Positions 15,996 through 48,858 of a stretch of DNA of 64,000 nt are shown here, one piece after another (within the stretch, counting starts at the first letter, position 1; the number at the start of each line of letters is the position of its first letter). The notes under the pieces are model-generated. The model saw only the letters and a list, made by a program, of their open reading frames with translations, was not told where the DNA came from and ran no database searches. The position numbers and the translations under genes were made by a program. Source of the DNA: a virus; the IMG/VR virus record IMGVR_UViG_3300017710_002137, positions 1 through 64,000 of that record; one strand, written 5' to 3'.

Positions 15996-18900
15996 CCAAA
16001 TATAAAAATAAAACAAACTGTTAAAGATAAAAACGCACCTGTAAAAATTACGGTTGCAACTGATAGAGGACCTGCAACTGTAATGGTTGATGGTAAAGAT
16101 GTTGGTACAACAAATGGAACTGGAGAATTTCATACACTTATTTTAAACTTTACTGAAAAAGAATTATTACAAAGAAAAATAATTACAGTTAAAAAAAGTA
16201 ACTTTGCTTCAAAAGATGAGTGGAGAGTTTCTTCTGTACAACGTAGTATAACAAAAACTATTAAACCAATAATAGATACTACACCCGTTTTAAGTGGTGG
16301 TAGACCAGAATTACCTGATGTAAGTTCACCAAGACCAAGACCTTCAAGTGGAAATGTTAATCCAAGAGTTACTCCATCATCTGATGGATTCAATAGAGAT
16401 ATGGATGATTATCTTGGTAATAACAAACAATTTTTAGGTGGAACTGGATTTGGAGAATTTAATGGAAATATAGGACCATCGAGAACATCAGGTGGAAATA
16501 CCATTGGATTTGATGATATAAATTTTGGATTTGGCGGAGCTAGTTCAAATAGACGTAATAATTTTTCCACTATCAATTTTGGTGGATATGGATATGACAA
16601 TTTTGATAATTTACCTAAGTTGGGATTACCTCCAAGAGATGTTCCTGCAAGAAGTTTTATAAGAAAACCATATGGTAATATTGGTACGAGTCCTATAAAG
16701 ACATCACCTACATTAAAACCAGCTAAACTAACGTTAGGTACGATTCCATTTAACTATTATGAGATAGTATTAGAAAGAAAAGTGGATGGTAAGTGGGTAC
16801 AACAACCATCAGACTATTCTACTTTTTCAAAAACAAATGTTTCTGTAAGACCTAAATCTCACTCATTACGAGTTGGTTTTAGTTTAAGAAAAAATGTTGA
16901 GATACTCGAATCACCAAAAATTGAATCTACATATAAGGTAAGGATAATTGGAGATGTTCCAACTGATGATACTATTGTATGGAAAACTAATTATGGACAA
17001 GTTGGTTCTGTATTAGATGATGATGATATCGTAATATTTCAAATTGAACAACAAGTTGGAGACCCCGAGCCACGAATAGAATTTTATGCAAATGGTATAA
17101 CGGATTTTACACACAATGGTAGTTTCCAAATTAAATCTGGAAAAAATAATAAAGAATTTAAAGGTTTAGAAACAAGTTTTAGATTATATCCTGGTAATAA
17201 TGATATACAAGTACAGGTATTTAAAGAACCCGTATCTGAACCTCCAACTAAACCTGCTCTTAAATTAGATAGAACATCTGCTCAATTAAATATATCAGAC
17301 CCAAAGGCAATTAGAATAGGATACAAATCAGTAGATGCAGATAAAGTAATCTATACACTTGGAAAAGTTAAAAAAACTATTCCATTAAATGGTACTATTA
17401 CATTAAGTGGTAAAGACTTTCCAAACGGAGCAGGTACATATACATTATATGTTCAACCTGTATCACGAAGAGGTGGTTCTGGTGATATTGAAAAATGTAT
17501 AATTACTGCAGAAAGTAAAGCATATTTACCTGGTCCTGATATCACACATATTAATTATCCACAAGTAATTAAAGGACCTGATTTTAAAGGCATTGATGTT
17601 GATTTCAACATATCATGGCAATCGGTAAATACAAACTATATACACATATATCTTGGTAAACCTGTAAGGGAAAACTACTTGGGTAAATTTGAACCACAAG
17701 GTGTTGCTCAATTTAATATGAGAAACATTATTAAAAAGGGTAGAAGGTTTGGAGCTTTAAGAAATTCAAGAAATATAATTAATTTTCAATTACTATTAGT
17801 TCCATATAATGAAGAGGGTGATTCAAGAGCAACAGGTAAGTTTGAAACTGTTAACATAACATTTGATAAAGGTGATTTAACTCTTAGAAGAGGAAGAGTA
17901 GTTGGTGACCTTAGAACTTCATTTGTAAAACAATGGAATTCAAAAGGGTTTGATGATTTTACTTCACCATTCTTAACTCACTACTTACACCTTGGTGATG
18001 GTAATAATAAATTGATTGGTACATGGGGAATTGATGAAACAACATTTTCAGATAAGATAACAAATCCTACTACAAATCAAATAGAATATAAAAACATAGA
18101 AAAATCTATTGTTTTAAAACTATATGAACCAATACCTCGAAATGTTGGTACAAATGATAAGATATGGATATCTAAAATACAATCCATACCATTAATTGAT
18201 ACAATAACAATTACAGATGATATTGTTAGTCAATGTACACCATTAACGCCAAATTTTAATTTAGATGTTAGTGATGAAATAGGATATCAAATTCTTGATG
18301 ATTTAATTTCGAGTGGTTCTGCATCTTCAACTGATGTAATAAGTCAATTTGTATCTTCAAGTGATTTTTCTTTAGAAAATCTTAATATAGAATTCGTAAC
18401 TCAATCTTCGGTAGTAAAAGAAGTTGGGACAGGTTTATTATTAGAAAAGGCTGGTATAGAAGATTATAATTGGAAAGAATTTATAAAATACTCATCTGCA
18501 GGTGAACGAGTTGAAAACTTTTACTATAAGATTAAATTATTAGAAAATTATGAAGATAAATATAATACAGTAAATAGTCTTACATCTTCTATAGCAACAA
18601 GAAACGAAGCTAAAAAACTTCAATTTAAAATTGGAGAAGTAAAAAGAGGATTTGATGCATTTGAAAAATTCCTATATAGTAAACCAACTTCTCTTTCATA
18701 TCCTGGAGCTGGATTAAACTCAATATCTTCATCAGAAGATTCTTCAACAATTAGTTGGTTTAATGGTATTTTAAATTCTGCGAGAGATTATGATAAATAT
18801 AATACAGCAAGATTATCTTTCAATTTACCAAAACATATTAGAGATGATGAAAACAATTCTGATTTTATATTATTCTCAGATATGGTTGGACAACACTTTG

Positions 18901-28436: not shown

Positions 28437-29381
28437 ATGCTTTCACATCACGAGAAACAAGAGGTTATAAACATATTAAATGATGTTTTGGGTGTTGGTA
28501 CATCGATGAAAAACGATGAACAAGCACACCATTGTCCATTCTGCCATCATCACAAGAAAAAGTTACAAGTTAATTTAAAAACACAATATTGGCATTGTTG
28601 GGTTTGTGATGCAAAAGGAAGAAAGATACAGAGGTTACTTAAAAGACTGCATGTAGATTCTCGTAAATTAAAGAAAATATATGAAATCTATGGAGATGAT
28701 TATGTTGTATATTCAAAAGAAACTGAAGAAGAGAAGGTTGAGTTACGATTACCAAGTGAATTTAAATCACTTTTAAAAGTACCAACAGGTAAAGTAAAAC
28801 CTGTGTACAGAAAAGCTCTTAGGTATGCTGAAGATAGAGGTATTACTAAAGAAGATATTACAAGATATAATATCGGTTATTGTGATACTGGTATGTATTC
28901 CAATCGTATTATTATTCCATCTTATGATTCTGATAACAGACTCAATTACTTCATCGCACGTTCTATACACTCTGAAGAAAAGTTTAAGTATAAGAATCCG
29001 CCAGTTTCGAAAAATGTTATTATGTTTGAAAACCAAATAAATTGGAACGAACCAATAACATTAGTTGAGGGTGTATTTGATGCAATGGCGGTAAAAAGAA
29101 ATGCTATTCCTATACTTGGTAAATTTATTCCAAAAACTTTAAATGATACTATATATAAAAAGGGTGTTGAAAGTATCAATATATTATTGGATGGGGATGC
29201 TCAAGACCAGGCTTTATACTACACTATGCAATTCCAAAATCAAGGAATCACTACAAAAAATATTAAACCCACAGATAAAGATGCATCTGAAATGGGGTTC
29301 ACAGAAGTAAATAATAAATTAAAAGAATCTAAGAAAACAGGATTCGGTGATATTATATCACAAAAACTAAAAGGTTTATGA
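28437..29381 (+). CDS. DNA primase (zinc finger plus TOPRIM)
   Basis: CPFC...HCWVC zinc ribbon; RIIIP, KYKNP, VEGVFDA and LDGDA motifs. Confidence 0.92.
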   Translation: MLSHHEKQEVINILNDVLGVGTSMKNDEQAHHCPFCHHHKKKLQVNLKTQYWHCWVCDAKGRKIQRLLKRLHVDSRKLKKIYEIYGDDYVVYSKETEEEKVELRLPSEFKSLLKVPTGKVKPVYRKALRYAEDRGITKEDITRYNIGYCDTGMYSNRIIIPSYDSDNRLNYFIARSIHSEEKFKYKNPPVSKNVIMFENQINWNEPITLVEGVFDAMAVKRNAIPILGKFIPKTLNDTIYKKGVESINILLDGDAQDQALYYTMQFQNQGITTKNIKPTDKDASEMGFTEVNNKLKESKKTGFGDIISQKLKGL

Positions 29382-32300
29382 TAATAAATAAGGTTTACCA
29401 CCTTGCAGATTTACACATTAGAAATCTACAAAGGCACAAAGAATACAAACAAGTATTTAAAAAATTCCTAAAACAAGTTAAAGAAGATAAAATTGAGGAT
29501 TCCCTCATTTATATTGCTGGTGATATTGCTCATGCTAAAACTGAGATGTCACCTGAACTCGTACACGAAATAAGTTGGTTTCTCACCGAGTGTGCGAAGT
29601 TAAGAGAAACTGTGTTAATCACAGGTAATCATGATTGTAATTTAAATAATTCCCACAGACTAGATGTACTCACACCTATTATCGAAAATCTTGGAAATAA
29701 TCGAATTCATTATCTTCGTGATACTGGTGTCTATAATATCCATAATCTTACTTTTGTTGTTTATTCTATATTGGATGACAAAGAAAATTGGCCTAAAGGA
29801 GATACCATTGATGGAGAAAATAAAATCGTTTTATTCCATGGACCAGTAAACAAAGCTCAAACAGATATCGGCTATACCGTTTCTTCAAACTCATTCCAAG
29901 TGGATATGTTTGATGGATTCGATATGGCCATGTTGGGTGATATCCACAAAAGACAAACATTCGGACCTGGTTATGAACACATTGCTTATGCTGGTTCTAT
30001 GATTCAACAAAATCATGGTGAGTTATTAGAGAATCATGGATATCTACTTTGGGATATTCCAACAAGAACTTTTACAGAACATCATCTACATAATGATTAT
30101 GGATTCTTAACAGTTGATGTAGTTGATGGTAAGATACCTCAATGGGTGTATGATGAGGTTGGTACTAAACTTCCAAAGTATCCAAGATTAAGATTACGAT
30201 TTACAAGAACAGAAGCTTCTGATATGAAAAGAAGAATAACTGAACTAAAGAAGTTATTCAAAGTTGCTGAAGTTACTGTAACGAGAACTGATACAATAGG
30301 ACAACTAAAAACAAATCAAAAGGTAAACAAAAACATCGTTGGTAATGTTAAAGATGAAACATTCCAAAACTCCTTAATACGAGATTACTTAGAAAGACAA
30401 TATTTGTTAGAAGATGAGGAGTTAGATAAGATAGCAGAAATTAACTCAGAGTTAAATGGACAGATAGATGATTCAGATTCAATAGGTAACATCTTATGGA
30501 CACCGAAAGAGTTTCAGTTTTCTAATATGTTTTCATATGGTGAGGATAACAAAGTAAGGTTTAATAAAGCTCAAGGTATCGTTGGTATCTTCGCTCCAAA
30601 TGCCTCTGGTAAATCCTCTCTCTTCGATGCATTATCATTTTGTATCTATGATAAGACTTCTCGTACAAACATCTCTAAGAACATCTTAAATAATCGTAAA
30701 ACAAACTTCTATTGTAAGTTTAACTTCGAGATAGATGGAATTGATTATTATATCGAAAGAAGAGCTAAATATGTTAGGAGACAAACATCGGTAAAGGTGG
30801 ATGTAGATTTTTGGAGAGATAACAATGGAGTTATAGAATCACTTAATGGAGAACAACGAAAAGATACTAATAAGGAAATAGAAAAGTACTTAGGTAAGTT
30901 CGAGGACTTTGTTTTAACTGCTCTTTCTCTACAAGGAAATAACGCACTCTTTATAGATAAATCACAATCGGAAAGAAAAGAAATACTTTCTCAATTCATT
31001 GGTGTAAACATCTTTGATAAATTATATCAAAAGGCTGCTGATGAGAATAGGGATAATGCAACACTTATCAGAAAATTTAAGAGTGATGATTTTACGACAA
31101 AATTAGCGGAAATCGACACTGATTTAAAAACAAACAAAAATGATTATAAACTTTTAGAGATAAATCAAAAAGCTTTAAAAGACGAAGAAGATGTGTTGAA
31201 CAAAAGGATTATATCCCTAAACGAGAAAATCGTTAAGTTGAATGCTGATAGTGGGGTTTCGATTGAAGAGTTAGAAAAAAGATTGAAAAACCTCGAAACC
31301 AAAAAGGATGGGGTTTCAACCACAAAAAGTTCGGTTCAAGAAAGAATCACCTTTAGGGAAGAACTACAAATTACTTTAGAAGAAATCTTAGATAAGTTTG
31401 ATGAAGAAGATTTAGAAGAAGGAATTACAAAATTAAAAAGATTAAGAAAGAATTTATCTAATATTGATTCTGAAATAGAAAAAATTAATATTAAGTTAGA
31501 ATCTTTATACGAAAGAAAACAGCACTTAGATTCACACAAATATAATGAGGATTGTGATATTTGTATGGAAAATTCTAAATCTATTTTAGATACAAAATCT
31601 GAAGTAGAATCAAAGATAAAGGAGTTGGAAGAATCTTTACAACACAATGAAAAAGAAAAGTTAGATTTAAACATTGAGATTGATTCTTTGAAAGGATATG
31701 AGGATGAGTGGGATAAGTATAAAGATGCTAAAGATAAAGAGGATAAATTAGATAGAGAAATATCCCAACTTATCAACAAGTTATCAACAACCGAAACTGA
31801 AGAAATCCGTTTAGATACACAAATTACTCAACAGCAACAACTTATCAAAGAATATTATAAGAATGAGAAACAAATTCAGAAGAATAAAGAAATCAGAGAT
31901 GAGATTAGTGGAGTAAGAGAAAAACTTACAATTGTTAAAGATGAACTTAAAGGATACAATACAGATATCCTTAAATTAAATGGTAAAGTATCAGCATTAC
32001 AGAATCAGAAAGAAACTATTGAAGATAGAATCAATGAGGTTAAGGATATGGAATCTCAAAGTAGATTATTTGATTTTTACTTAAATGCTCTTTCTAAAGA
32101 TGGTGTATCTTATGAATTGATTGAAAAAGCATTACCAATGATTGAGGGTGAGGTAAACAATATTCTTGCACAAATCGTAGAGTTTGGAATGCAATTAGAA
32201 ATTGATGGTAAAAACATTAATGCTTATTTAGTGTATGGAGACCAGAGATGGAGTTTGGAAATGTGTAGTGGAATGGAAAGGTTTATTAGTGGTTTAGCAA

Positions 32301-32536
32301 TTAGAGTTGCTCTAATCAATGTATGTAACCTACCAAGACCTAATTTCCTTGTGATAGATGAAGGATTCGGTACATTAGATAGTGAGAACCTACAATCCCT
32401 ATTTATGTTGTTTACATACCTTAAAACTCAGTTTGATTTCGTTATGATTATTTCACACATTGATTCAATGAGAGATGTTGTAGATGGTCTTATAGAGATT
32501 AAGAAAGAAAAAGGATTTTCTAATGTAAAATTTTAA
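29378..32536 (+). CDS. Fused Mre11/SbcD nuclease and Rad50/SbcC ATPase (T4 gp47-gp46 equivalent)
   Basis: DLH, GD, GNHD, H and GDIH phosphoesterase motifs; then APNASGKSS Walker A, CDIC zinc hook, CSGME signature, IDEGFG Walker B and ISH. Confidence 0.93.
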   Translation: MIINKVYHLADLHIRNLQRHKEYKQVFKKFLKQVKEDKIEDSLIYIAGDIAHAKTEMSPELVHEISWFLTECAKLRETVLITGNHDCNLNNSHRLDVLTPIIENLGNNRIHYLRDTGVYNIHNLTFVVYSILDDKENWPKGDTIDGENKIVLFHGPVNKAQTDIGYTVSSNSFQVDMFDGFDMAMLGDIHKRQTFGPGYEHIAYAGSMIQQNHGELLENHGYLLWDIPTRTFTEHHLHNDYGFLTVDVVDGKIPQWVYDEVGTKLPKYPRLRLRFTRTEASDMKRRITELKKLFKVAEVTVTRTDTIGQLKTNQKVNKNIVGNVKDETFQNSLIRDYLERQYLLEDEELDKIAEINSELNGQIDDSDSIGNILWTPKEFQFSNMFSYGEDNKVRFNKAQGIVGIFAPNASGKSSLFDALSFCIYDKTSRTNISKNILNNRKTNFYCKFNFEIDGIDYYIERRAKYVRRQTSVKVDVDFWRDNNGVIESLNGEQRKDTNKEIEKYLGKFEDFVLTALSLQGNNALFIDKSQSERKEILSQFIGVNIFDKLYQKAADENRDNATLIRKFKSDDFTTKLAEIDTDLKTNKNDYKLLEINQKALKDEEDVLNKRIISLNEKIVKLNADSGVSIEELEKRLKNLETKKDGVSTTKSSVQERITFREELQITLEEILDKFDEEDLEEGITKLKRLRKNLSNIDSEIEKINIKLESLYERKQHLDSHKYNEDCDICMENSKSILDTKSEVESKIKELEESLQHNEKEKLDLNIEIDSLKGYEDEWDKYKDAKDKEDKLDREISQLINKLSTTETEEIRLDTQITQQQQLIKEYYKNEKQIQKNKEIRDEISGVREKLTIVKDELKGYNTDILKLNGKVSALQNQKETIEDRINEVKDMESQSRLFDFYLNALSKDGVSYELIEKALPMIEGEVNNILAQIVEFGMQLEIDGKNINAYLVYGDQRWSLEMCSGMERFISGLAIRVALINVCNLPRPNFLVIDEGFGTLDSENLQSLFMLFTYLKTQFDFVMIISHIDSMRDVVDGLIEIKKEKGFSNVKF

Positions 32537-33413: not shown

Positions 33414-36400
33414 ATGGCAATTATCAAGAAATTTTCACCATTTCAAAATCTTAGTAACTTTTCAACATTTGTTGATGATGATAATCCAAATTCAGAATAC
33501 TTTAAGATTACTGAATTTAAGGAAACATTTACAGGTGGTAAAAACGGGTTTCTTATAGAAGGGTGTCCGGAATTAAAAGAAAGTTCTGAGGTTAAGATAG
33601 AACTACTTGATGTGGAGGGAAATCCCATATACTTCGAGCCTGGAGATGGTATACCAGAATATTATGAAGGTACATCTAAATTAATATCAGTTCATGTTTA
33701 TGAGGATACTCCAATTGGATTGGGAAAGATAACTATACTTGGTGAACTAAAACAATATAAAGATTCTTTTGGAGCTCTTGTAGATATACCCAATGAATGG
33801 AGGGGTGTTTACAATGTTAAGTGGGAAAGAACATTTCAGGTAAATAAAAATTTATCCAATGAAACAACTGTTAGGTTTTATAAAAGACCTTCAGTAACAA
33901 TTACAGAATTAATAAAACCCATATTTTCTAAATCTATTCCAACTGTAACTGATACTGGTCATGTACATGGGTTTTCTATAACACCATCTGTTGGTGAAAA
34001 TATTACAACATGGAGAGCTGGTACATCATATGGATTACGATTAACAAGTGGTTCTTGGGATGTTGATGTAGATGAAAATATTATTACAATTTCAAATCCT
34101 TCATATCAAGCTAGAATAATTGAAGTATTGGATTCGAAACAGGTACTTGTTGATATACCTTATACTGAAAATAATATTGTAACAGATTTTGAATCTGGTT
34201 CTTATTCTGTTACTTATACTGATTTTCAAAATCAAGTTGTTGGAGAAACTTCTTTAACAGGTTCATTTGCTAAAGTAGATATATCACAACTTAAAACTTT
34301 TGTTGGTGATGTTGCTAGAGTAAAGGTATTTAGAAAATCAAGAAACGCTGTTGGTGATTTTCAATTTGTACAAGAATCAAAATTAGAATCATCAGAATTA
34401 CTTAGAGATATTACAACAACATCGGATACGGAATTGTCGTATGGTAGATTCGATGAAAACAACTTAACTAACTATTGGGTAACCTCATCTGATTCACATC
34501 CTACTTCAATCAACTCAGATGTTTTATCTCAAGCAGTAAAGATTGATTATGATGAGAATGTAGGTGGTGTACAGAGATTAATAACATCAGAATCAATATC
34601 AGTATCAAGTGATGTTGAATATACACTAAACTTTAGAACATTACTAAGTGGTTCACTTGATGATAGTGGTAAAACAATAAGGGCGTTTTTTAGTTCATCA
34701 AACTTTACACAAGATTTTACAACAATAAGTGGTTCTGCTATTTATAGAGCAAGACAAAATATATCTGAAAATATTATATCTCAAAATACTGGTGATGCAA
34801 AATTAGTATTCGAGGTTCAAGGTTCTGATTGGTACATTTCAAATGTATCTTTAAGAAATGCACAAGAATCATCATTTTCACCAGATGAATTTACTTTAAT
34901 TCAAGATATTCCAAGAAAAACTGCATCTGAAACATTTGATTTTAGATTTGAGTTTTATGATATCAATAACAATTATATACCTGTTGATGTTTCTGCTGTT
35001 GGTGTATTTAATGGTGGTAATGATTTTCCTACAAGTGCAAAATTATTAACATTTGAATCCGATAGAAATGCATTTAGATTTTCAAGTGGTTCGGTACAAA
35101 ATCCAAAGAATCAACAAATACAACTTAAGATAACCCAAAATAACTTAACGGGTTCAATATTGTTTGAATCATCTGCATTTGATGTTGATGGTAATTATTT
35201 AAATCCAAATGATTATACACAATATCCTGGTTTACTAACAGGTGTAAATCCAGCTGGAGGGTTAATTACTATAAATAATTTTACTGGTTCAAGAACTGAT
35301 AATTCACCAACTCCTTTTGTTGGTTCTGTTATTTATACCGCTTCATTAGAAAACTTACAAGAGTTTGAAACTGTTTATAGATTAGAAGATGGTGATAATG
35401 CACCTCAACTTATTGTAACTTCAAACGCAAATCAATTTACATATGAACCAACTGCATTAGAACCAAAGCCATCTGGTCAATCGATTACAGTTAGAGCTCA
35501 GAGAAAAAACTTAGCATCTTTAATTACACCAATAGAAATAAATAGTGGTAGTAATAAACCTAAATTAAATTATGTAGATACTGTTAATGGTATAGATACA
35601 TATACTTTAACCGCAACTACATTCTCAGCTTCTTTTTCCGATAACTCATTTGATGAAGTAACTTATTCATTTACTGGTTCGGATGTATTTGGTAATAAAC
35701 AATCAGATGAAATTACGATTTCAAAAGTAGTTAACTTTGATGGTGTATCTATAACTCTTACAAACGATTCAACTACATTTAGAGCAAATGGACAAGGAGC
35801 GGTTCTTGATAATTTTGCAAGTGGTGATGGTGAGGTAGAAGTTAGAATTGCAAATAAAGAGATACAACATAGTGATGGACTAACTTCACCAAACAGATTT
35901 GATATTGTATCCGCAACAGCAACAAATGTGACTGAGGCATATTCATCCTATACTACCAATGAATATGGTATTTCCTCATTATCTGCAGATAGTGGTTCTT
36001 TGATACTGAGTGTAAAATATCTTGCTGGTGATAATAGTACTTCACAATCTTTTCAGAAAAAAGTAAACTATACTAAAAACAGAATAGCATCCCCTTCTAT
36101 TGTATTTGATACTACAAATAAAACACAGAATGTAGATGCTAAATCAACGGGTGCACAATTAAGTTCATTTGATTCATCTACAATGGCTATTCGAGAATTC
36201 TATACAGGTTCTCTTACATCATTTTCTTCAGCTAATATCGATTTAACAATAACATCTGGTTCTAACGATGTAAGTGGAAATCCTTTAGTAACAAGGAGTG
36301 GATTAAGTTTATCTTATGGTGAATTACCAAATAATACAAACTCAACTCAAGTAGGATTAACTGCTACAGTAACAGATAGTGAAGGAACAAGTAGAGAGGT

Positions 36401-39400
36401 TAGTGATACCGTTTCACTTTCTAAAACAAATGCTTCTGCACCAAATGTTGAGATACAAGTATATCCTTCATCTCAAACTATAACTGCAAACTCTGTTGGT
36501 AGTGGTTCAGCAACCCCATCTAATTTATCAATTGTGGTATCTGAAGGAGGAACAACAAGAACAATATCCTCAATTGGAACAATAACAACAACTGGTGGAT
36601 TAAGTGTAAATACACCAACTTCTCCATTTACAACAATATCGTTTACTTCAGATGCATCTGATATGACATCTGATACTGGTACAATTACGATACCAGTTAC
36701 AACAACAAATAGTGAAGGAAGTTCTGTAACAAAAACTATAACTGCAATTGTTACAAGAGCACGAGAAGGTGAAACTCCCGTATTAGTTACTCTTACTCCA
36801 CAGGCTCAAACTATAACTGCAAATTCTTTGGGTAGTGGAAGTGAATCACCACAAACTATTAGTGTAAGTGCAAAACAAGGAAGTACTGATGTTTTTGATT
36901 CTATGACAGTTTCATATAGTGGAGGTATAGGTGGAACGATTTCAAGTAATAACTTAACATTTACAGATACGGCATCTGATATGACTTCTGATACAGAAAC
37001 TATAACATTTGCTGTAACATATACAGATTCTGCAGGGGATACATCTACTGAAAACATTACTGCAAATATTTCGAGAACAAGAGCTGCAAGACCAAATGTT
37101 GAGGTTTCGGTTTCTCCAACAGGACAAACAATAGAAGCAAATTCGCGTGGTAGTGGTTCGGCAACTCCACAAACTTTAACAGTAAGGGCACTTGAGGGTG
37201 GTACGAGTAGATTTGAAGAAATCACTAATGTTTCATTTTCAAATGGATTGGATGGTGATGATTCTCCATTATCAAACACAGTAGCATTTACATCAACTGC
37301 AACTGATATGACATCTGATACCGGTACTGCAACTGTAACTGTTTCATACCAAGATAGTGAAGGAACACTTGGTACTAAAGATGTGATAGCAACAGTATCA
37401 AGAGTTAGAGTGGCTCAACCAGGTATAAATTTCTCAGTTACTCCTGCCGCTCAAACAATTGCTGCTAATTCAAATGGTACTTTAACTGGTACAATACAAG
37501 ATGTAAGAGTTGATGGGTTTGAAGGTAATAGTGCTTTAACATATAATCAAGGAACTCTTAGTGCTGGTCAATATAAAATTACTAATGTAACTGGTGTAAG
37601 TGTTTCAGATACAACACCATCGGATGAGAATATTGATATTACAGGTTTTAGTGGAGATAGTGCAACTGGTACTGCTTTTATTGGATTTAAAGATAACGAA
37701 GGAACTACTGGTACAACAACTATTAAATTTACACTTTCTAAATCTAAAAAAGCAACACCAGTTGTTGCGATATCTGCAAATCCACAATCACAAACAGTTG
37801 ATTCAAATTCAGCATTTTCATCAGTTGGAACACCATCTGCTGTAACAATAATTGTTAACGAAGGTGGTAGTAATTATACACATACGACAGGTACGGTCAC
37901 TGCAAATAAATTTAAAATTACTGGTGTAACAAATGGTACAAATAATAATGATGGAACTATTACACCAACCACACCAAGTGATGCCAATGGAACAACTTCT
38001 GTTGTAACTTTAAGTTACACAAACTCAGAAGGTAGAGAATTTACATCGAAAACAATTACGGTTAATGTTGGTGTTGCAGTTCAAGGAGATGATGGAGCGG
38101 CTGGTCCTGGTATTACATTCGTTGGAGATTGTTCTGATTTAGCAAGTACATTTACTTGGACAAGTGATGAGAACACAAGACAAGTTACTAAGGTTGGTAG
38201 TTCGTATTATATTACAAAAGATGCGGCCGATGGTGTAGCAAAATCAACAACAGGATGTCCTGGTGATACTGGTTGGGGAACTTACTTTGAAACAATGACA
38301 TCTTTTGCATCGGTTGCTACCGATGTACTTTTTGCTCAAGATGTTTACGCTAACAAAACAGTTAATATTGGTACATCTCCAAATGGAACTGAACCTGTAA
38401 TCGCATTAAATGCAGATGCAAGTAATGATTATGCAAATCCATACATTGGAATCGGTACATCTGCTTATAATGGCACTGGTATATTCTTAGGATATAATAG
38501 TGATGTTGCTAAACTATCCTTAAAATCATCAACAAATTCGTTATTGTGGGATGGTACAAACCTTACAGTAAATGGTGGTGGTACATTCTCAGGTGATTTA
38601 TCTGCAGCTGGTGGTACTTTTGAAGGTAGTTTATCAGTAGGTTCTGGTGATGATATATTAAAAGTTGATTCGAGTGGTAACTTACATATCGGAGATGCTA
38701 ATTATGCGGATGCACCATTTAAGGTATCCAATGATGGTACACTTACAGCAACTGGAGCAACAATTAGTGGTGCAATTACTATAACTTCTGGTGATACCGC
38801 GGATGCAATTGCTCAAGCAAAATCAGTTGCAGATGCGGCAACAGGAAGTGCCGCCACTGCTCTATCGGCCGCTCAAGGTGCTCAACAAGATGTTGATAAC
38901 TTGAACATACCAACAGTACCAACTACATTTAATCCAAATAACTTGTCAAATGTTGGTACACCATCTGTTAGTGGATTACATTTAGGTGAGGATAAAATGG
39001 GATTCTATAATGCAACTGCACCAGCTGGATGGAAATCTTATTTAGATAGTAGTGGTAACTTTTTTCTTGCAGGTACAAATAGTGGAGCTGCCGCTCCATT
39101 GAGTTTTACAGGTACAACCGGTATCTTATCAGTTACAACAGGTGCAACAATTGGTGGTTGGACAATTGATTCAAATTCGATACACACTGGTACAAAAGGA
39201 AGTAGTGGAAACTTTACATCAGCAGGTGCTATAACAATTGGAAGTAGTGGTTTTATATCAGCAAATGGATTTTATATTGATACTGATGGTAACTTTGTAC
39301 AAGAAACCACAAAAACTAAACTAAAGAAAGATGGTGTTGCAACACCAAGAGCTTTATCTAATTTATTTGATATTGATTCATCTGAAATATTTATTAAAAC

Positions 39401-40619
39401 TGCTGCAAAAATTGGTAGTGGAACTCAAAAGGGTAGTTTCTCAACTGCGTTTGCATTTGATACCGATGGTACGTTTTCTTTAAATAATGATTTTAGAATA
39501 AAAGGCTCATCATCTGGAATCGGGACTCGATTTAATACTATATCTACCAACTTCTCAGCGATTGATACTCGAGACGGTTTCTGTGTATTACCTGGTACTA
39601 AAATAATTTCTAAAAGAGGTGAGATAAATGTAGAAGATACAAAAGAAGATGATGTAATCAAAATATTTAACTTTGAAACCAAAGAATGGGGATGGTCATC
39701 TATTGATGAAATTATTACTAATAAAGTACAAGGATGGAGTAAGATAGAAACAGAATTAGGTAAAAAGTTAAAATGTTCTAATTCACATTTACTATATCAT
39801 CCTGATTATCCTAATTGTGAAATTTCTGTTGATAAACTCGGAGTTGGTGGTGAGTTGTATGTTTATGCTGATGGAAGATTAGTTATTGATAAAATAAAAA
39901 GTATAGAAACTTTTGATGAAGAAGTTGAGGTTTGGAATTATGAATTAGATGTAGTGCATAATTATATTTCAGATGGAATACTTTCACATAATATGTCTGC
40001 AAAATTAGACGCAGTTGTAACATTAGGACACGCATATAAAAAGAGAATATCGGAAAATATTTCAAGAGGTGATTTAGTAAAAGTAGATTCAAATAATGAA
40101 CTTATAAAAGTATCATCAGCAAAAGATACATCGGTGGTTGGTATTCTTTGGGAAAAATATGAATTAAAAATAACAAACCTAATAACTGGTTCCGTAGAGG
40201 ATGGATACACTCCTTTTACAGCATCAGAAGAAATGGTATCCGCTTCATATTTGGATTCATTTGGTAATTATTTAACAAATAATGAAACTGGTTCAAAAGA
40301 AATGTGGAGAGTAGCATCTCTTGGGGATAGTATTGAATGGAATATATCCGGTTCTTACTTTAGTTTAACAGGATTTAAAATGTGTAATCAAGGTGGTGAT
40401 GTTGTACCTGGTGATTTACTTTGTTCTTCAGATACTCCTGGTTATTTAATGAAACAACCATCAGAGTGGGTAGTAACAGGATTTAATGGAGATTCTACTC
40501 CAATTTACGAAGAAAGACAATCACAATGTTCTTATACAGTAGCAAAATCTATGGAATCATCTTCGTGGGATTCTAATGGTAAAATGGAAGGCGTGTACGG
40601 ATATCTATATTGTGGATAA
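33414..40619 (+). CDS. Giant tail fibre/adhesin-like protein with tandem beta-rich repeats, Hint domain and C-terminal chaperone-like domain
   Basis: 2401 aa, Ser/Thr/Gly-rich; about six ~110-120-aa repeats; Hint at aa 2057-2193; C-terminal GDLV..VVGI..GDLLCSS..PGYLMKQ..YTVAK domain. Confidence 0.8.
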   Translation: MAIIKKFSPFQNLSNFSTFVDDDNPNSEYFKITEFKETFTGGKNGFLIEGCPELKESSEVKIELLDVEGNPIYFEPGDGIPEYYEGTSKLISVHVYEDTPIGLGKITILGELKQYKDSFGALVDIPNEWRGVYNVKWERTFQVNKNLSNETTVRFYKRPSVTITELIKPIFSKSIPTVTDTGHVHGFSITPSVGENITTWRAGTSYGLRLTSGSWDVDVDENIITISNPSYQARIIEVLDSKQVLVDIPYTENNIVTDFESGSYSVTYTDFQNQVVGETSLTGSFAKVDISQLKTFVGDVARVKVFRKSRNAVGDFQFVQESKLESSELLRDITTTSDTELSYGRFDENNLTNYWVTSSDSHPTSINSDVLSQAVKIDYDENVGGVQRLITSESISVSSDVEYTLNFRTLLSGSLDDSGKTIRAFFSSSNFTQDFTTISGSAIYRARQNISENIISQNTGDAKLVFEVQGSDWYISNVSLRNAQESSFSPDEFTLIQDIPRKTASETFDFRFEFYDINNNYIPVDVSAVGVFNGGNDFPTSAKLLTFESDRNAFRFSSGSVQNPKNQQIQLKITQNNLTGSILFESSAFDVDGNYLNPNDYTQYPGLLTGVNPAGGLITINNFTGSRTDNSPTPFVGSVIYTASLENLQEFETVYRLEDGDNAPQLIVTSNANQFTYEPTALEPKPSGQSITVRAQRKNLASLITPIEINSGSNKPKLNYVDTVNGIDTYTLTATTFSASFSDNSFDEVTYSFTGSDVFGNKQSDEITISKVVNFDGVSITLTNDSTTFRANGQGAVLDNFASGDGEVEVRIANKEIQHSDGLTSPNRFDIVSATATNVTEAYSSYTTNEYGISSLSADSGSLILSVKYLAGDNSTSQSFQKKVNYTKNRIASPSIVFDTTNKTQNVDAKSTGAQLSSFDSSTMAIREFYTGSLTSFSSANIDLTITSGSNDVSGNPLVTRSGLSLSYGELPNNTNSTQVGLTATVTDSEGTSREVSDTVSLSKTNASAPNVEIQVYPSSQTITANSVGSGSATPSNLSIVVSEGGTTRTISSIGTITTTGGLSVNTPTSPFTTISFTSDASDMTSDTGTITIPVTTTNSEGSSVTKTITAIVTRAREGETPVLVTLTPQAQTITANSLGSGSESPQTISVSAKQGSTDVFDSMTVSYSGGIGGTISSNNLTFTDTASDMTSDTETITFAVTYTDSAGDTSTENITANISRTRAARPNVEVSVSPTGQTIEANSRGSGSATPQTLTVRALEGGTSRFEEITNVSFSNGLDGDDSPLSNTVAFTSTATDMTSDTGTATVTVSYQDSEGTLGTKDVIATVSRVRVAQPGINFSVTPAAQTIAANSNGTLTGTIQDVRVDGFEGNSALTYNQGTLSAGQYKITNVTGVSVSDTTPSDENIDITGFSGDSATGTAFIGFKDNEGTTGTTTIKFTLSKSKKATPVVAISANPQSQTVDSNSAFSSVGTPSAVTIIVNEGGSNYTHTTGTVTANKFKITGVTNGTNNNDGTITPTTPSDANGTTSVVTLSYTNSEGREFTSKTITVNVGVAVQGDDGAAGPGITFVGDCSDLASTFTWTSDENTRQVTKVGSSYYITKDAADGVAKSTTGCPGDTGWGTYFETMTSFASVATDVLFAQDVYANKTVNIGTSPNGTEPVIALNADASNDYANPYIGIGTSAYNGTGIFLGYNSDVAKLSLKSSTNSLLWDGTNLTVNGGGTFSGDLSAAGGTFEGSLSVGSGDDILKVDSSGNLHIGDANYADAPFKVSNDGTLTATGATISGAITITSGDTADAIAQAKSVADAATGSAATALSAAQGAQQDVDNLNIPTVPTTFNPNNLSNVGTPSVSGLHLGEDKMGFYNATAPAGWKSYLDSSGNFFLAGTNSGAAAPLSFTGTTGILSVTTGATIGGWTIDSNSIHTGTKGSSGNFTSAGAITIGSSGFISANGFYIDTDGNFVQETTKTKLKKDGVATPRALSNLFDIDSSEIFIKTAAKIGSGTQKGSFSTAFAFDTDGTFSLNNDFRIKGSSSGIGTRFNTISTNFSAIDTRDGFCVLPGTKIISKRGEINVEDTKEDDVIKIFNFETKEWGWSSIDEIITNKVQGWSKIETELGKKLKCSNSHLLYHPDYPNCEISVDKLGVGGELYVYADGRLVIDKIKSIETFDEEVEVWNYELDVVHNYISDGILSHNMSAKLDAVVTLGHAYKKRISENISRGDLVKVDSNNELIKVSSAKDTSVVGILWEKYELKITNLITGSVEDGYTPFTASEEMVSASYLDSFGNYLTNNETGSKEMWRVASLGDSIEWNISGSYFSLTGFKMCNQGGDVVPGDLLCSSDTPGYLMKQPSEWVVTGFNGDSTPIYEERQSQCSYTVAKSMESSSWDSNGKMEGVYGYLYCG
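36085..38090 (+). repeat. Tandem degenerate ~110-120-aa repeats (Ig-like, inferred) in the fibre protein
   Basis: Recurrent P-x-x-QT(I/V)xANS(x)GSGS, A(S/T)DMTSDT (three copies) and (D/N)SEG motifs; boundaries approximate. Confidence 0.8.
39582..39992 (+). other. Hint (intein-like/BIL-type) autoprocessing domain, 137 aa, without endonuclease
   Basis: Starts CVLPGTKI (block A), CSNSH (block B), VWNYEL..HNY..GILSHN (blocks F/G); the next residue is Met. Confidence 0.92.
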
Positions 40620-43376: not shown

Positions 43377-44837
43377 ATGAAAGATAAGTTAGCGATAATA
43401 GTTCCGTATAGAGATAGACAAGACCACTTAGATGTCTTTGTTCCTCATATGCACGAGTTCCTCAAAGATAAAGGAATCGAATACACTATTTTTATTGCCG
43501 AACAAACAGATGATAGACCATTCAACTATGGAAAACTGTGTAACATAGCATCAAAAGAAGTTGGAGAAGAATACACTTACTTTGCTTTTCACGATATCGA
43601 TATGTTACCAATGAATGATGAGTGTGATTATGGTTATCCTGAATCACCAACTCATTTAGCAAGTAATGTTGAGGCACATGGTGGTGAATTACCTTACCCA
43701 CAATACTTTGGTGGTGTTATTCTAATGAGTAGAGAAGATTTCGAAACAGCAAACGGATATTCAAATGAATATTGGGGTTATGGTTTTGAAGATTTAGATT
43801 TACTTTACAGATTAGAAAGAAGTGGTGCTTACTTAGAAAAAAAATATGATTTAAATAATGTATATTCTAACTATGATGAGTTAGATGTTCTACCATATAG
43901 GATTGAAAATGTAAATGTTTGTAATGAGAAACGAATTCAACAAATGGAATACAATACATTTTCTGAAAGTGATTACATATATGGATTACTAAATCCACTT
44001 ACTAAAAAAATGGTTAAAGATTCGTTTAGTATTTCATTTTGGTTCAATGATGATTTTGAGCGTAAAATGAAAAAAAACTTATTTGTATTTGAAGGATGTG
44101 ATAGTGGATTGTTTTTGAGTAGGGGAAATGAAATAATAGCACAAATTTGGGATAATAAAGATAATCACGAAGAAATTATATTATCTTACTCAAGAAACAG
44201 ATGGAATCATTGTGTATATTCATATGATAGTAAAGAAAATATTTTAAAGTTATCTATAAACGATAAAACAAAAGAGATAAAATTAAAAGATAGTTTTGAG
44301 ATATATGATTACTCTAAAAATAATATAAAAATATCAGATGATTCCACATCTATAATGATATCAAATATTTTAGCGTTTGATTCTTACTTAAGTAATGAAA
44401 TTATAAACATATTATATAATAGAGGTAATTCATCTTTAGATGATATACATAATAAATTTGGGTTATCACCTGTAATAAACTTAAAATATAATTCTTTATA
44501 TAAACAATCAATTTTATTAGATAGTGGTTCTTACAAAAATCACTTAAAGTTTTATGGAAGTTTACAATCAGATAAATTAACATATACACCAAATGAATTA
44601 TATCTGCCAATAAGATTAGATTCTGAATATAAATCTTTAGTTCACAAAAACGATACAGATATAATAAAAAGATATTACGAATACGACCCGGATATTACAG
44701 AAAATTCTGATATATTTTTTCACGATGTGATTCCAAATAAATTAGATTATAAATCCATAGGATTGAGTACATTAAATTACAGTATATTAGATATACAAAA
44801 TAAAAAAAATTATGAACTTATTAGAATTGTTACATAA
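43377..44837 (+). CDS. GT7 (beta-1,4-galactosyltransferase-like) with internal LamG-like domain, copy 1
   Basis: IVPYRDR, FNYGKL, FHDIDM, YFGGV, NGYSNEYWGYGFEDLD; insert with FSISFWF..WNHCV; ends IGLSTLNY. Confidence 0.88.
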   Translation: MKDKLAIIVPYRDRQDHLDVFVPHMHEFLKDKGIEYTIFIAEQTDDRPFNYGKLCNIASKEVGEEYTYFAFHDIDMLPMNDECDYGYPESPTHLASNVEAHGGELPYPQYFGGVILMSREDFETANGYSNEYWGYGFEDLDLLYRLERSGAYLEKKYDLNNVYSNYDELDVLPYRIENVNVCNEKRIQQMEYNTFSESDYIYGLLNPLTKKMVKDSFSISFWFNDDFERKMKKNLFVFEGCDSGLFLSRGNEIIAQIWDNKDNHEEIILSYSRNRWNHCVYSYDSKENILKLSINDKTKEIKLKDSFEIYDYSKNNIKISDDSTSIMISNILAFDSYLSNEIINILYNRGNSSLDDIHNKFGLSPVINLKYNSLYKQSILLDSGSYKNHLKFYGSLQSDKLTYTPNELYLPIRLDSEYKSLVHKNDTDIIKRYYEYDPDITENSDIFFHDVIPNKLDYKSIGLSTLNYSILDIQNKKNYELIRIVT

Positions 44838-45369: not shown

Positions 45370-45607
45370 ATCTCTTGAAGAAAGAGGTGTAAAGGCCCTT
45401 GAATCTATTGCGGGTTCAATTGGAGACATCAACGATTGGTTGTATGAATTAGATGCTGATATGTGGCAAGAAAGATTGGAGTGGTACTTGAATGAGTTCT
45501 ACCAAATCGCTAAAACAAAAACAGTAGGAACAACAAATAGACCAGAAAGAGGTAGTGAAAGAATCCAAGAGAATACAGAAACTCAAGGAGAAGAAAGTAA
45601 ATCATAA
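45341..45607 (+). CDS. Hypothetical acidic protein
   Basis: 88-aa ORF overlapping both neighbours. Confidence 0.55.
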   Translation: MAKNETTKVKSLEERGVKALESIAGSIGDINDWLYELDADMWQERLEWYLNEFYQIAKTKTVGTTNRPERGSERIQENTETQGEESKS

Positions 45608-47006
45608 ACTTGGTATAATAGTTCCATATAGAGATAGAGAACAACAACTGAAAAGGTTCTTATCTCATATGAAAGATTATATTAAGGATATTGATTACGA
45701 AATCTTCATCATTGAACAGGCAGATGATAACCCTTTTAATAGAGGTAAACTTCTGAATGCAGGATATAAGTATGCCTTAGATAAAGGGTGCGATTATTTT
45801 GTATTTCACGATGTTGATATGTTGCCTGAAGATGTAGATTATTCGTATTCAGATAAACCTCTACATTTAGCAACACACTTACAAGAACACGATTACGAAA
45901 CCACATTTTTTGATTACTTTGGTGGAGTAACAATGTTTACAAAAGAAGATTTCAAAACTATCAATGGATTCTCAAACGAATATTGGGGATGGGGATTTGA
46001 AGATGATGATTTACTTATCAGATGTTTAGATTCAAATCTACAATTAGATATGGATTCAAATGGTAGCGATACTATTCAAGAAATAGAATCATTTAAATTT
46101 GATGGAAATGAATCCTTTATAAAATTAAGTACAGATAAAAAGTTACACTTATTGGAAGATGAGTTTACAATATCTGTAATGGTTAAACCTGAAAACATAA
46201 AATTGAGTGTTAATAAGGATTATGATGAATTTCCCATATTATCAATTCCTGGTTATAACATAGGATTGTTTTATAACTCATTTAGAAGATTCTTCTGTCA
46301 AGCATATGATGTTGATAAAAAATCACATTCAATATCAACTGATATTGTTGGTGATAGGTGGGTTCATTTAACAATGGTTTATGAAAATTCAGATACCTTA
46401 AAGTTTTATATGAATGGTGAATTGGTTAGTGTTGAAAAAATGAACAATGAGATACTACAATTACCTTCTAATGAAATATATGTTGGGATTGGAAATGGTA
46501 AACCAACAAATAAAGACTTCTTTTATGGATTAATATCGGGTATCGAGATATACGATATTGCACTTACTGATGATGAAATAGTTGAGATATATGAAAACCC
46601 AACAAAACCAAAACTTAGAAACTTTGGTAATTTTAAATCAAGTGAGTTTTTATATACACAAATATTACCACAATTATCATCATCCACTACTTGTATAGAC
46701 TTGGGTGGCAAATATGATGTTTATTTGAATAATATATATTTATATAAGAGTAGAGAATCATTTAAAACATTTTTGCCAAAACCACATAGAAGAAATTCTC
46801 GATTTGTATCACTTAAACATAAAAGCAACTCTTCGGTTGGTAATAAATGGATTCATAAAGAAACAAGAAAAAATCAATTAAAATACTATAACGATGTTAG
46901 AGAAGGAATTGATGATTTTAGAATAGATGGATTAAACACTCTCAGATATAAAGAAATTAAAAAAGAAGAAACTAACTTAGTTACTAAAGTACTAATAGAA
47001 CTATGA
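45555..47006 (+). CDS. GT7 with internal LamG-like domain, copy 2
   Basis: IVPYRDR, FNRGKLLN, FHDVDM, YFGGV, NGFSNEYWGWGFEDDD; insert FDG..FTISVMVK..WVHLTMVY..IYDIALT; ends DGLNTLRY. Confidence 0.9.
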   Translation: MKESKRIQKLKEKKVNHKLGIIVPYRDREQQLKRFLSHMKDYIKDIDYEIFIIEQADDNPFNRGKLLNAGYKYALDKGCDYFVFHDVDMLPEDVDYSYSDKPLHLATHLQEHDYETTFFDYFGGVTMFTKEDFKTINGFSNEYWGWGFEDDDLLIRCLDSNLQLDMDSNGSDTIQEIESFKFDGNESFIKLSTDKKLHLLEDEFTISVMVKPENIKLSVNKDYDEFPILSIPGYNIGLFYNSFRRFFCQAYDVDKKSHSISTDIVGDRWVHLTMVYENSDTLKFYMNGELVSVEKMNNEILQLPSNEIYVGIGNGKPTNKDFFYGLISGIEIYDIALTDDEIVEIYENPTKPKLRNFGNFKSSEFLYTQILPQLSSSTTCIDLGGKYDVYLNNIYLYKSRESFKTFLPKPHRRNSRFVSLKHKSNSSVGNKWIHKETRKNQLKYYNDVREGIDDFRIDGLNTLRYKEIKKEETNLVTKVLIEL

Positions 47007-47413
47007 TGAGTATGTATAACAGAGGTATAATTGCAGGAAATTTTGATGTAATCCATCCTGGTTATATAAAGATGTTTAAAGAATGCAAATCATATTGTAA
47101 ACAATTCATAATTCTTCTTCATACAGACCCATCAATCGAAAGACCAGAAAAATTAAAACCAATTCTTACTAAAGAAGAAAGAACAGAGGTTTTAAGTTCA
47201 ATAAAATTTATAGATTCAATAGCATACTACACATATGAAGATGAGTTGGTTAAATTAATAAAAGATTTAGAGCCAGATATCAGATTTTTAGGGGATGATT
47301 ATAGAGGCAAAACATATACTGGTTTTGAATTAGATATACCCGTTCATTATCTAAACAGAGACCATGGTTGGTCAACAACCAAGTTTAAAAAACTAATTGC
47401 AGATACACTATGA
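47003..47413 (+). CDS. Cytidylyltransferase (TagD/glycerol-3-phosphate CT-like)
   Basis: GNFDVIHPGY (HxGH variant), GDDY and WSTT motifs. Confidence 0.85.
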   Translation: MMSMYNRGIIAGNFDVIHPGYIKMFKECKSYCKQFIILLHTDPSIERPEKLKPILTKEERTEVLSSIKFIDSIAYYTYEDELVKLIKDLEPDIRFLGDDYRGKTYTGFELDIPVHYLNRDHGWSTTKFKKLIADTL

Positions 47414-48858
47414 AGTTAGGAGTTTGTGTACCATATAGAAACAGAGAAGCACACCTTAAAGAATTTATACCAAGAATTGGTAAGTACCTTGAGGATAGGG
47501 GAATTGATTATCAAATTTATTTTGGTCATCAGGTAGATGATAAGTTGTTCAATAGAGGAGCAACAAAAAATATCGCTGCTGAGTGGGCATTTAAGGAAGG
47601 GTGTGATTATGTTGTGTGGCATGATATAGATATGATACCTGAACAAGGTGGGGGAGCTGATTATAGTTTTCCAAAAGAAAACCCAAGACATATCGCTACA
47701 CAAATTTCACAAATGAACTATGATTTAAAGTACGAAGAATATTTTGGAGGAGCTATTTTATTTTCCAAAGAACAAGTAGAGAGAACAAATGGTTATAGTA
47801 ATGATTATTGGGATTGGGGCATGGAGGATGATGACCTCTTTTGGAGGTGTGTCCTCGAAGGTTACACAAAAACAGATGTTATGGATTATACAACGAAACC
47901 CCAATCTTTTCTCTCGTTTAATGGTAAAGGTTCACATATAGAAATACCATGTACAAGACAATTAAGAAACTTGACTTCTCGTTCACATACAATCTCAGTA
48001 TTAGTTAGAGCACATCAACAAGAAGAAAAAGTTCCTATTTGGTTAGTTGGTGATATGGAAAGAAGATTTTGTGAGTATCCAATACTTCGTAGACCAGGTT
48101 ATGATTATGGGTTAAGTTACAACAATTCAAGAACTTACACAGCACAACTTTGGAATAATCAAAGAAATCACATCTATCAATGGATGAAGAATTATGAAAA
48201 CAGATGGGCGTGGATAACTCTTGTTGTAGATGAAAACAAAATTCATTTTTATATGAATGGAAAAGAATCTGATGCAAGATGGGGAACAGGAACACATTCA
48301 CCACAAGAATTTGAAGGTATGTTAAAACGATATGGTAATAAAAGTTATTACTTAGGAACAACAACATCAGTACCCGATGATGAACCTTCAAAGTGGTTTA
48401 GTGGAGATATTGCAGATGTTAGAATGTGGAATAGAGCCTTAACATCTGAAGAAGTATCAAATATACATAATGAAGTTGAAAATGATGGTTTAATCCTTCA
48501 TTATGATTTTGAAAATGGTTTAGTGATGGATAAATCAGATAATGATAATGATGGTATCAGTCATGATTGTGAATTTAAAACAGAAGAAATACAAATACCA
48601 CACACAACAGTACCACATAGAGTACCTGGTAGAATGTTTTGTTTAGAACATAAAGATGAAGGTTTGGTAAAGAACGAACATGGAAAAGATGTGTGGGCAA
48701 AAGGTGAAACAACTGCAAGAAATGAAAAAAGATTTGTACATCAAATGCAACAAGGAAAGTGGGATTATAAATCAGATGGTATGAATTCTTTAAAATACGA
48801 ATTAGTAAGTGTAGAAGAGATTACACCCAAAGCTAAATTTATTAATATTAAACTATGA
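47410..48858 (+). CDS. GT7 with internal LamG-like domain, copy 3
   Basis: VPYRNR, FNRG, WHDIDM, YFGG, NGYSNDYWDWGMEDDD; insert with FSGDIADVRMWNRALT..LILHYDFE; ends DGMNSLKY. Confidence 0.9.
   Translation: MKLGVCVPYRNREAHLKEFIPRIGKYLEDRGIDYQIYFGHQVDDKLFNRGATKNIAAEWAFKEGCDYVVWHDIDMIPEQGGGADYSFPKENPRHIATQISQMNYDLKYEEYFGGAILFSKEQVERTNGYSNDYWDWGMEDDDLFWRCVLEGYTKTDVMDYTTKPQSFLSFNGKGSHIEIPCTRQLRNLTSRSHTISVLVRAHQQEEKVPIWLVGDMERRFCEYPILRRPGYDYGLSYNNSRTYTAQLWNNQRNHIYQWMKNYENRWAWITLVVDENKIHFYMNGKESDARWGTGTHSPQEFEGMLKRYGNKSYYLGTTTSVPDDEPSKWFSGDIADVRMWNRALTSEEVSNIHNEVENDGLILHYDFENGLVMDKSDNDNDGISHDCEFKTEEIQIPHTTVPHRVPGRMFCLEHKDEGLVKNEHGKDVWAKGETTARNEKRFVHQMQQGKWDYKSDGMNSLKYELVSVEEITPKAKFINIKL

Follow-up and report, generated by a model that had tools for sequence, protein, structure and literature searches.

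An intein-like Hint domain between the shaft and the C-terminal domain of a giant marine phage fibre, with a plausible role in fibre maturation

A complete intein-like Hint domain stands between the shaft and the C-terminal domain (CTD) of a giant fibre-like protein encoded in the window, a stretch of 64,000 nucleotides (positions 1 to 64,000 of IMG/VR virus record IMGVR_UViG_3300017710_002137) from an uncultured marine phage. The whole record has 81,208 bases and an estimated completeness of 41%, and related contigs reach up to 176 kb. The Hint resembles A-type bacterial intein-like (BIL) domains, with conserved catalytic residues at both ends and no nucleophile at the position that follows it (+1). 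The reading favoured here, with a probability of about one half, is that this BIL-A-like Hint severs a trimerising, chaperone-like CTD, so that fibre, Hint and CTD are separate after assembly. The giant phage fibre is probably trimeric, and the CTD would be its trimerising chaperone: by analogy with the C-terminal autochaperone of phi29 gp12, this beta-tulip-type domain most likely trimerises and sets the register of the shaft. The Hint is predicted to cleave, this cleavage would matter to the phage, and a role for the Hint in fibre maturation is plausible. The features of the gene that bear on this reading are as follows:

33414–40619, plus strand: whole gene, a single open reading frame (ORF) encoding the fibre-like protein of 2401 amino acids (aa; protein P0001).
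38331–39581, plus strand: distal shaft, aa 1640–2056, ending at Phe2056 (position -1); a module common to giant fibres.
39582–39992, plus strand: Hint (intein-like) domain of 137 aa, aa 2057–2193, from CVLPGT to ILSHN, identified by phmmer and by AlphaFold2/Foldseek.
39582–39584, plus strand: codon of Cys2057, Hint position 1, the predicted thioester nucleophile; Cys in 35 of 35 relatives.
39786–39788, plus strand: codon of His2125, block B, in KCSNSH, Hint position 69; invariant in 29 of 29 relatives.
39987–39992, plus strand: codons of His2192-Asn2193, block G, the Asn predicted to form a succinimide; His-Asn in 42 of 42 relatives.
39993–40019, plus strand: Met2194 (+1) and the nine-residue linker MSAKLDAVV, where the predicted local distance difference test score (pLDDT) of the model drops to about 64.
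40020–40616, plus strand: CTD core, aa 2203–2401, ending in YGYLYCG; recognised by its fold matches and as a conserved family.
40020–40037, plus strand: T2203-L-G-H2206-A-Y2208, the invariant CTD start motif [TS]-x-x-H-x-Y of a 146-row alignment.

The Hint was confirmed as real and complete and not a chance motif. The initial annotation had placed a Hint of 137 aa without an endonuclease at aa 2057–2193 of the 2401-aa fibre, and these coordinates were exact: the feature it marked (39582–40619) starts at the first base of the Cys2057 codon and ends at the last base of the stop codon, and a length of 137 aa leaves no room for an endonuclease. In phmmer searches against PDB sequences, nearly the whole Hint was matched by the Spl DnaX mini-intein (7cfv; E 4e-5, chain 8–137) and by a BIL domain of C. 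thermocellum (2lwy; E 4.9e-5, chain 6–137). Structure prediction of the fibre end agreed. An AlphaFold2 model of aa 2030–2401 had a pLDDT of 84.6, and Foldseek matched it to 65 PDB chains at E<=0.001; among the matches listed (about 45), all were BIL, intein or Hedgehog Hint structures, headed by the Tetrahymena BIL2 domain 6tmm (3.9e-10) and by 2lwy (7.9e-10). The horseshoe fold, the N-terminal Cys and the block-B His together place the domain in the Hint (Hedgehog/intein) superfamily. The profile hidden Markov model search suggested by the initial annotation gave a weak result: Pfam Hint, PT-HINT (PF07591), Peptidase_S74 and Peptidase_G2 had no match at E<=1 in the window protein, and Intein_splicing matched the Hint at E 6.2e-5 with 23.3 bits, short of the 35.8 bits of its cut-off.

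Local profiles detected a Hint in 42 of 202 collected proteins, always ending 3–10 residues before the CTD. Thirteen Hint positions were invariant in the 29 relatives with complete Hint and CTD: C1, G5, T6, E18, D24, S39, H69, Y72, L86, I108, L134, H136, and N137. The count of 35 given for Cys1 refers to relatives with the Hint N-terminus on record. Between pairs of relatives, identity averaged 0.59 in the Hint, 0.51 in the CTD and 0.25 over the upstream 100 residues. The alignments indicate that both catalytic ends of the Hint are strongly constrained; the CTD exceeds the shaft in conservation, as expected of an assembly module. The spacing from the terminal Asn to the CTD His was 10–15 residues in 39 of the 42 relatives, and the other three had no such His within 30 residues. 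The +1 residue was free to vary in the same set (Ala 18, Met 6, Ile 5, Gly 3, Asp 3, Thr 2, Leu 2, Lys 2, Val 1) and was non-nucleophilic in 40 of 42 cluster representatives. The initial annotation had noted the Met at +1 and that canonical splicing needs a nucleophile there, and this held: judged from its residues, the window Hint cannot splice canonically, having no +1 nucleophile.

A-type BIL domains are defined, in PMC7765530 and PMC7664689, by Cys1, a C-terminal His-Asn, no +1 nucleophile, and a location in a variable region of a non-conserved protein. The window Hint has Cys1, His-Asn, no +1 nucleophile and a variable location. Its host is a phage fibre, whereas that of A-type BIL domains such as 2lwy is a bacterial secreted protein, and 2lwy was a top match, but mini-inteins matched equally well by Z. 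With canonical class 1 inteins the Hint shares the terminal His-Asn but not the Cys, Ser or Thr at +1, where it has Met2194; a colinear Hint-less allele exists (P0084, described below), but the site is a variable linker and not a conserved motif.

Under the favoured reading, Cys2057 would attack the carbonyl of Phe2056 once the Hint between shaft and CTD has folded, and the mature fibre, now ending at Phe2056, would be released when the resulting thioester is hydrolysed. At the other end, cyclisation of Asn2193 to a succinimide would cut the Hint from Met2194. Because there is no +1 side-chain nucleophile, the flanks would mostly stay unjoined, and the end result would be separate fibre, Hint and CTD chains. 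According to PMC7664689, BIL domains without a +1 nucleophile gave predominantly N- and C-cleaved products, and the likeness of the window Hint to such mainly cleaving domains, claimed at the outset, was supported. The placement of the Hint also favours this reading: it lies 3–10 residues ahead of a domain boundary, in a variable linker, and relatives have the part upstream swapped. A second precedent comes from polymorphic toxins, whose HINT peptidases sit just before a C-terminal domain and release it, according to PMC3482391. Like the pretoxin HINT (PF07591), the window Hint directly precedes the last domain of a long, filamentous protein; here, Hint and end-domain travel as a cassette behind different shafts. 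Unlike the pretoxin systems, a beta-tulip domain takes the place of the toxin fold behind the Hint, no immunity gene is evident, and PF07591, besides its lack of a match at E<=1 in the window Hint, matched only three of 102 relatives (best 5.1e-19).

The CTD was likewise well defined. Modelled alone, its 208 aa reached a pLDDT of 90.0 and a predicted template modelling score (pTM) of 0.84. VIA-align fold matches linked it to phi29 gp12 and not to S74, and no S74 structure was among the CTD fold matches listed. The CTD has the beta-tulip fold and the fold of the released C-terminal fragment of gp12 (Peptidase_G2, PF11962; 3gqh/3suc); the alignment pairs residue 10 of the CTD, the first one aligned, with gp12 residue 692, where that fragment begins. 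BFVD ranked a Colwellia phage 9A tail protein (1.7e-9) and a Vibrio phage tail fibre protein (1.6e-6) highest, with 'preneck appendage protein' entries at ranks 17 and 41. The initial annotation had described a chaperone-like domain of 208 aa; the domain exists, folds confidently and resembles gp12, and the S74 kind of chaperone was not found in it (no Pfam S74 or G2 match). The fold assignment was drawn from VIA-align and BFVD, and 'chaperone-like' is used here as a putative description of fold and position, not as a family assignment. BFVD also returned proteins of about 985 aa from Pyramimonas orientalis virus (A0A7M3UP28, 1.3e-6) and Tetraselmis virus 1 (A0A2P0VMV2, 1.1e-5); the fold is therefore found in eukaryotic giant (algal) viruses as well.

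A full phmmer scan with the end-domain gave a CTD family of 205 clusters at E<=0.001. The CTD lay at the extreme C-terminus in every protein examined, behind very different shafts. Pfam domains in 102 CTD relatives were Collagen (two proteins), YadA_head (one), and Phage_Tail_Tip (one); Peptidase_S74 (PF13884; E<=0.001) and Peptidase_G2 had no match among them. An End_tail_spike architecture, assigned by Pfam to two of the 102, was not used, as none of 20 long members had it on rescanning. Neither Pfam nor PHROGs has a name for the family; PHROGs gave a 'head decoration' match on the CTD at E 0.049 only. In the 146-row alignment the start motif opened with Thr or Ser (CTD position 10) in all 146 copies, followed by the His in 146 and the Tyr in 138. 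Ten positions were invariant in the 146 complete copies: H13, G50, G111, D112, G127, G140, G150, Q155, T182, and Y202. These conserved residues suggest a catalytic, metal-binding or ligand-binding site. Two cysteines were near-invariant, Cys131 in 139 of 146 copies and the penultimate Cys207 in 128.

Disposal of the CTD is favoured by the company kept by its shaft. The shaft module (aa 1640–2056) matched 65 proteins at E<=0.001, the window's own included. Twenty-four of these (2122–2504 aa; one being the window's own) ended in Hint and CTD, 26 carried Pfam Peptidase_S74, whose S-[DE]-x-[RK]-x-K motif was intact and lay about 100–150 residues from the end, one had a Hint followed by a different end, and 14 had none of these; five of the 65 carried the prophage-tail domain PF06605. 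Because of the five proteins with PF06605 and the 26 with S74, the window protein was accepted as a fibre, likely a tail fibre. Fibres with a homologous shaft end in either the CTD or an S74 chaperone. Peptidase_S74 holds the same C-terminal position and presumably the same job on giant fibres as the CTD. Unlike S74, the CTD has no conserved Ser-Lys dyad, and no Lys column near the invariant His reaches 85%.

The initial annotation had suggested that homologous fibres might alternate between Hint and S74 at this position. This was not the case: because a Hint is also present in eight of the 26 S74-ending shaft relatives, some 190 residues ahead of the S74 motif, it is the CTD, not the Hint, that alternates with S74, and Hints accompany either ending. 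The Hint of these eight fibres is apparently without the N-terminal Cys and ends in HN|P. In P0373–P0379, P0382 and P0386 (3164–3238 aa), the Hint is of this kind and is followed by about 190 residues of unassigned fold and then by an intact S74 motif, giving two self-processing modules per protein. In P0349 (2491 aa), the Hint apparently starts with Ser, ends in HN|P and is followed by an unrelated, Trp/Tyr-rich end of about 270 aa.

A further candidate that was considered was a disguised S74 dyad at the start of the CTD (T-L-S-H-x-Y-x-K), lost in the Hint-bearing proteins. The residue before the invariant His was Gly, Ser, Thr, Ala or Pro in Hint-bearing rows and Ser, Thr, Gly, Ala, Val or Tyr in the others; with the Ser position variable in either class and no difference in the motif between them, the idea was rejected. 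Since the invariant polar motif of the CTD is unaltered in Hint-bearing members, the Hint has not replaced a lost CTD cleavage site.

The results in this paragraph, and those on the CTD further below, count against release of the CTD as the function of the Hint. A Hint was found in 11 of 104 judged CTD clusters and was lacking in 93, the 104 being those that could be judged among the 150 cluster representatives listed. In a tree of 146 CTDs (a quick tree without bootstraps, with several long branches flagged), all 35 Hint-bearing rows fell within one clade of 62 (Shimodaira-Hasegawa-like approximate likelihood ratio test, SH-aLRT, 100), a Hint-less clade of 26 was nested in the Hint-bearing clade (SH-aLRT 97), and the Hint label required three changes. 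The CTD motif did not differ between the 35 rows that bear a Hint and the remaining 111. In P0084 the P0011/P0014 fibre occurs as an allele that lacks the Hint, with a short linker and flanks that are colinear; this allele supplies the clean-insertion half of the evidence that would mark an ordinary mini-intein. The Hint is thus dispensable for the CTD family, and the original proposal that Hint chemistry had been recruited for fibre maturation went further than these counts and the Hint-less allele allow. In IMG/VR, 11 related loci all had Hint and CTD; the closest of them (87% identity) has Met at +1 and the second closest Val, whereas the other nine of the 11, one lineage with fibres of 3156–3164 aa, have Thr, a possible nucleophile. 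Finally, N-terminal cleavage alone would suffice for removal of the CTD, and the invariant terminal Asn would fit a splicing-type reaction at least as well.

These observations are what would be expected if the Hint were a passenger in a tolerant linker, or a non-canonical splicer, and added nothing beyond what Hint-less fibres have, the main rival explanation, considered less likely than cleavage. As a passenger, the Hint would occupy a linker whose CTD is lost in any case, and exact ligation would be unneeded. As a splicer, it would follow the route reported for A-type BIL domains: the Asn cyclises first, and the amino group set free by this step attacks the thioester, rejoining shaft and CTD. 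The clean presence/absence polymorphism of P0084 against P0011/P0014 fits this explanation, as do the three label changes with the nested Hint-less clade, the CTD motifs that are the same with or without a Hint, and the Thr at +1 in one IMG/VR lineage. The invariant catalytic ends combined with a free +1 side chain are also the needs of ligation through the amino group. On the other side, the BIL products reported in PMC7664689 were predominantly cleaved, a homing endonuclease is lacking, the insertion lies outside any conserved host-protein motif, and the Hint is more conserved than the host domains. Its G+C content at third codon positions (GC3; 0.109) is similar to that in the rest of the gene (0.117–0.159), and the insertion is therefore old.

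Divergent Hints at the same junction also speak against a mere passenger or splicer. The Hint of P0033 is 28% identical to the window's, whereas those of its CTD-sisters P0016, P0024 and P0027 are of the common type (58–61%); the P0033 CTD groups with common-type proteins (SH-aLRT 97). The Hint of P0088 is 26% identical to the window's, matches PT-HINT (2.4e-4) and belongs to a protein that branches separately in the same clade; the precomputed Pfam list of P0033 includes PF07591. Because P0033 and P0088 carry divergent Hints at the same junction, the sequences suggest that Hints have been replaced or recruited there more than once. Residues 208–317 of P0088, the N-terminal half of its Hint, matched Pfam AXH (ataxin-1/HBP1) at E 1e-17, far better than PT-HINT. 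In P0053 (248 aa), an N-terminus resembling an amidase (PF01425) is fused directly to the last 55 Hint residues and the CTD start; this protein is probably a chimeric contig or a recombinant fragment.

The points concerning the CTD begin with its sequence, in which kinship to Peptidase_G2 could not be regarded as established. With gp12 alone hhalign gave a probability of 0.9%, and with a G2 profile of 121 rows it gave 6.4% (E 0.0058, 47 columns, first hairpin only). PF11962 had no match in the window protein or its 102 relatives; gp12 itself scores 2.6e-97. Where the G2 consensus reads D-y-a-E-Y-F-E-S, the CTD consensus reads F-T-x-x-H-x-Y, and the acidic residues have no equivalents. In gp12, Asp692 and Glu695 presumably have a catalytic role at the cleavage site; residue equivalence with them is not claimed, as two hhalign registers differ by one residue. 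A separate Hint is proposed to supply at least one cut here, whereas gp12 cleaves itself. A Foldseek search of PDB with the isolated CTD model had no match at E<=0.001. The fold is shared with trimeric capsid decoration proteins, which are never removed. Because the CTD keeps invariant polar residues of its own with or without a Hint, it may act in its own right, for example by cleaving itself or by binding a ligand.

Alternatively, the CTD would be a working distal tip (receptor or glycan binding) or an anchoring trimer and not a disposable chaperone, a proposition that is considered rather unlikely. The domain would then stay on the fibre, covalently in Hint-less proteins and non-covalently or by re-ligation in Hint-bearing ones. 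This proposition concerns the CTD only and is combinable with any reading of the Hint. The ten invariant positions, with the polar H13, D112, Q155, T182 and Y202 among them, suggest a site more than a scaffold, the fold is used by permanently bound capsid decoration trimers, and the G2 acidic residues of gp12 lack conserved equivalents in the CTD consensus. The decoration and triplex proteins that share the beta-tulip fold (phi29 gp8.5 base, TW1, herpesvirus triplex) are small stand-alone capsid-binders or N-terminal bases, whereas the CTD closes a protein of 2401 aa and has relatives with tail-tip and tail-fibre features. In most fibres the receptor-binding tip varies more than any other part; the CTD is conserved across 205 clusters with unrelated shafts, and the other common ending on the homologous shaft is the S74 chaperone. 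Both points count against a working tip.

Two further fates of the Hint were weighed. In the first, the thioester at Phe2056 would be resolved by a specific nucleophile (a lysine of a virion protein, a sugar, or a small molecule), modifying or cross-linking the fibre tip in a Hedgehog-like manner. Cys1 is invariant, the best Foldseek match was the Tetrahymena BIL2 domain 6tmm of the BUBL1 locus, which is reported to mediate conjugation, and a glycan-synthesis gene block lies directly downstream. No Hedgehog-like adduct-recognition region is evident, no partner was identified, and the terminal Asn, unneeded for the reaction, is yet invariant; ligation of this kind is accordingly judged improbable. 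A version in which the thioester couples Phe2056 to a virion component or to a glycan of the 23-kb block is an equally long shot; independently of it, the CTD may be a new self-cleaving chaperone family with a [TS]-x-x-H motif at the position of the gp12 self-cut. In the second, the Hint would be catalytically silent, a structural spacer or knob between shaft and CTD. The residues for both cleavages are invariant although the Hints average 59% identity and fall as low as 26–28%, a pattern not readily expected of a spacer, and a silent Hint is the least probable fate of all.

Two ways of removing a folding helper from the C-terminus of a phage fibre are known, one through the Ser-Lys dyad of S74 and one through the acidic G2 site of phi29 gp12. 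If the favoured reading is true, a Hint at the junction of fibre and helper would be a third route, by thioester and succinimide chemistry, and intein-type chemistry would be serving virion maturation instead of a selfish element. If ligation were true, Hedgehog-like attachment of a lipid or other ligand would occur in a bacteriophage. BIL and pretoxin Hints and self-removing fibre chaperones are already known, and what appears new is the Hint at a phage fibre/end-domain junction; no description of a Hint in a phage fibre was found in the literature searched. The CTD family (unnamed in the libraries searched) caps many marine phage fibres, and whether and how it is removed matters for the annotation and engineering of receptor-binding proteins. 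This value is tempered by the optional presence of the Hint among close relatives and by cleavage being predicted from conserved residues and homologues.

The remainder of the fibre gene was less readily placed. PHROGs gave no family for the protein, Pfam gave nothing above its cut-offs, and tblastn with the 445-aa end against 50,697 phage records gave no match. A search of phage records with the N-terminal 500 aa gave two matches only, both unannotated. The middle of the protein is rich in Gly, Ser, Thr, Ala, and Asn, and includes one further feature:

36519–38108, plus strand: about five tandem units of about 106–109 aa, aa ~1036–1565 of the shaft, recognised by autocorrelation and shuffle-tested alignment.

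The identity autocorrelation of these repeats peaked at lags 109, 106, and 113. Local alignment z values against shuffles were 17.9–24.4 among units 1–3 and 1.8–9.6 for pairs with units 4–5. The repeats were invisible to BLAST self-comparison, which had no off-diagonal matches.

Genes for a primase, an SbcCD-like nuclease and a gp6-like baseplate wedge protein mark the source of the window as a large tailed phage. The fibre gene follows 22 kb after that of the T4 gp6-like baseplate wedge protein (8944–10956; PHROG E 3.3e-19), with replication genes between it and the baseplate structural block. A second giant ORF (15570–21341, 1923 aa) had no family match. SbcD and SbcC are usually two separate genes; at 29378–32536 a single 1052-aa protein combines an SbcD-like phosphoesterase (residues 5–191) with an SbcC-like ATPase. 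Directly downstream of the fibre gene is a large glycan-synthesis gene block, in which glycosyltransferases were confirmed. Within this block, at 43377–44837 and 45555–48858, GT7-type galactosyltransferase domains are joined with a LamG/ConA-like domain, and the next paralogues had PHROGs 'virion structural protein' matches.

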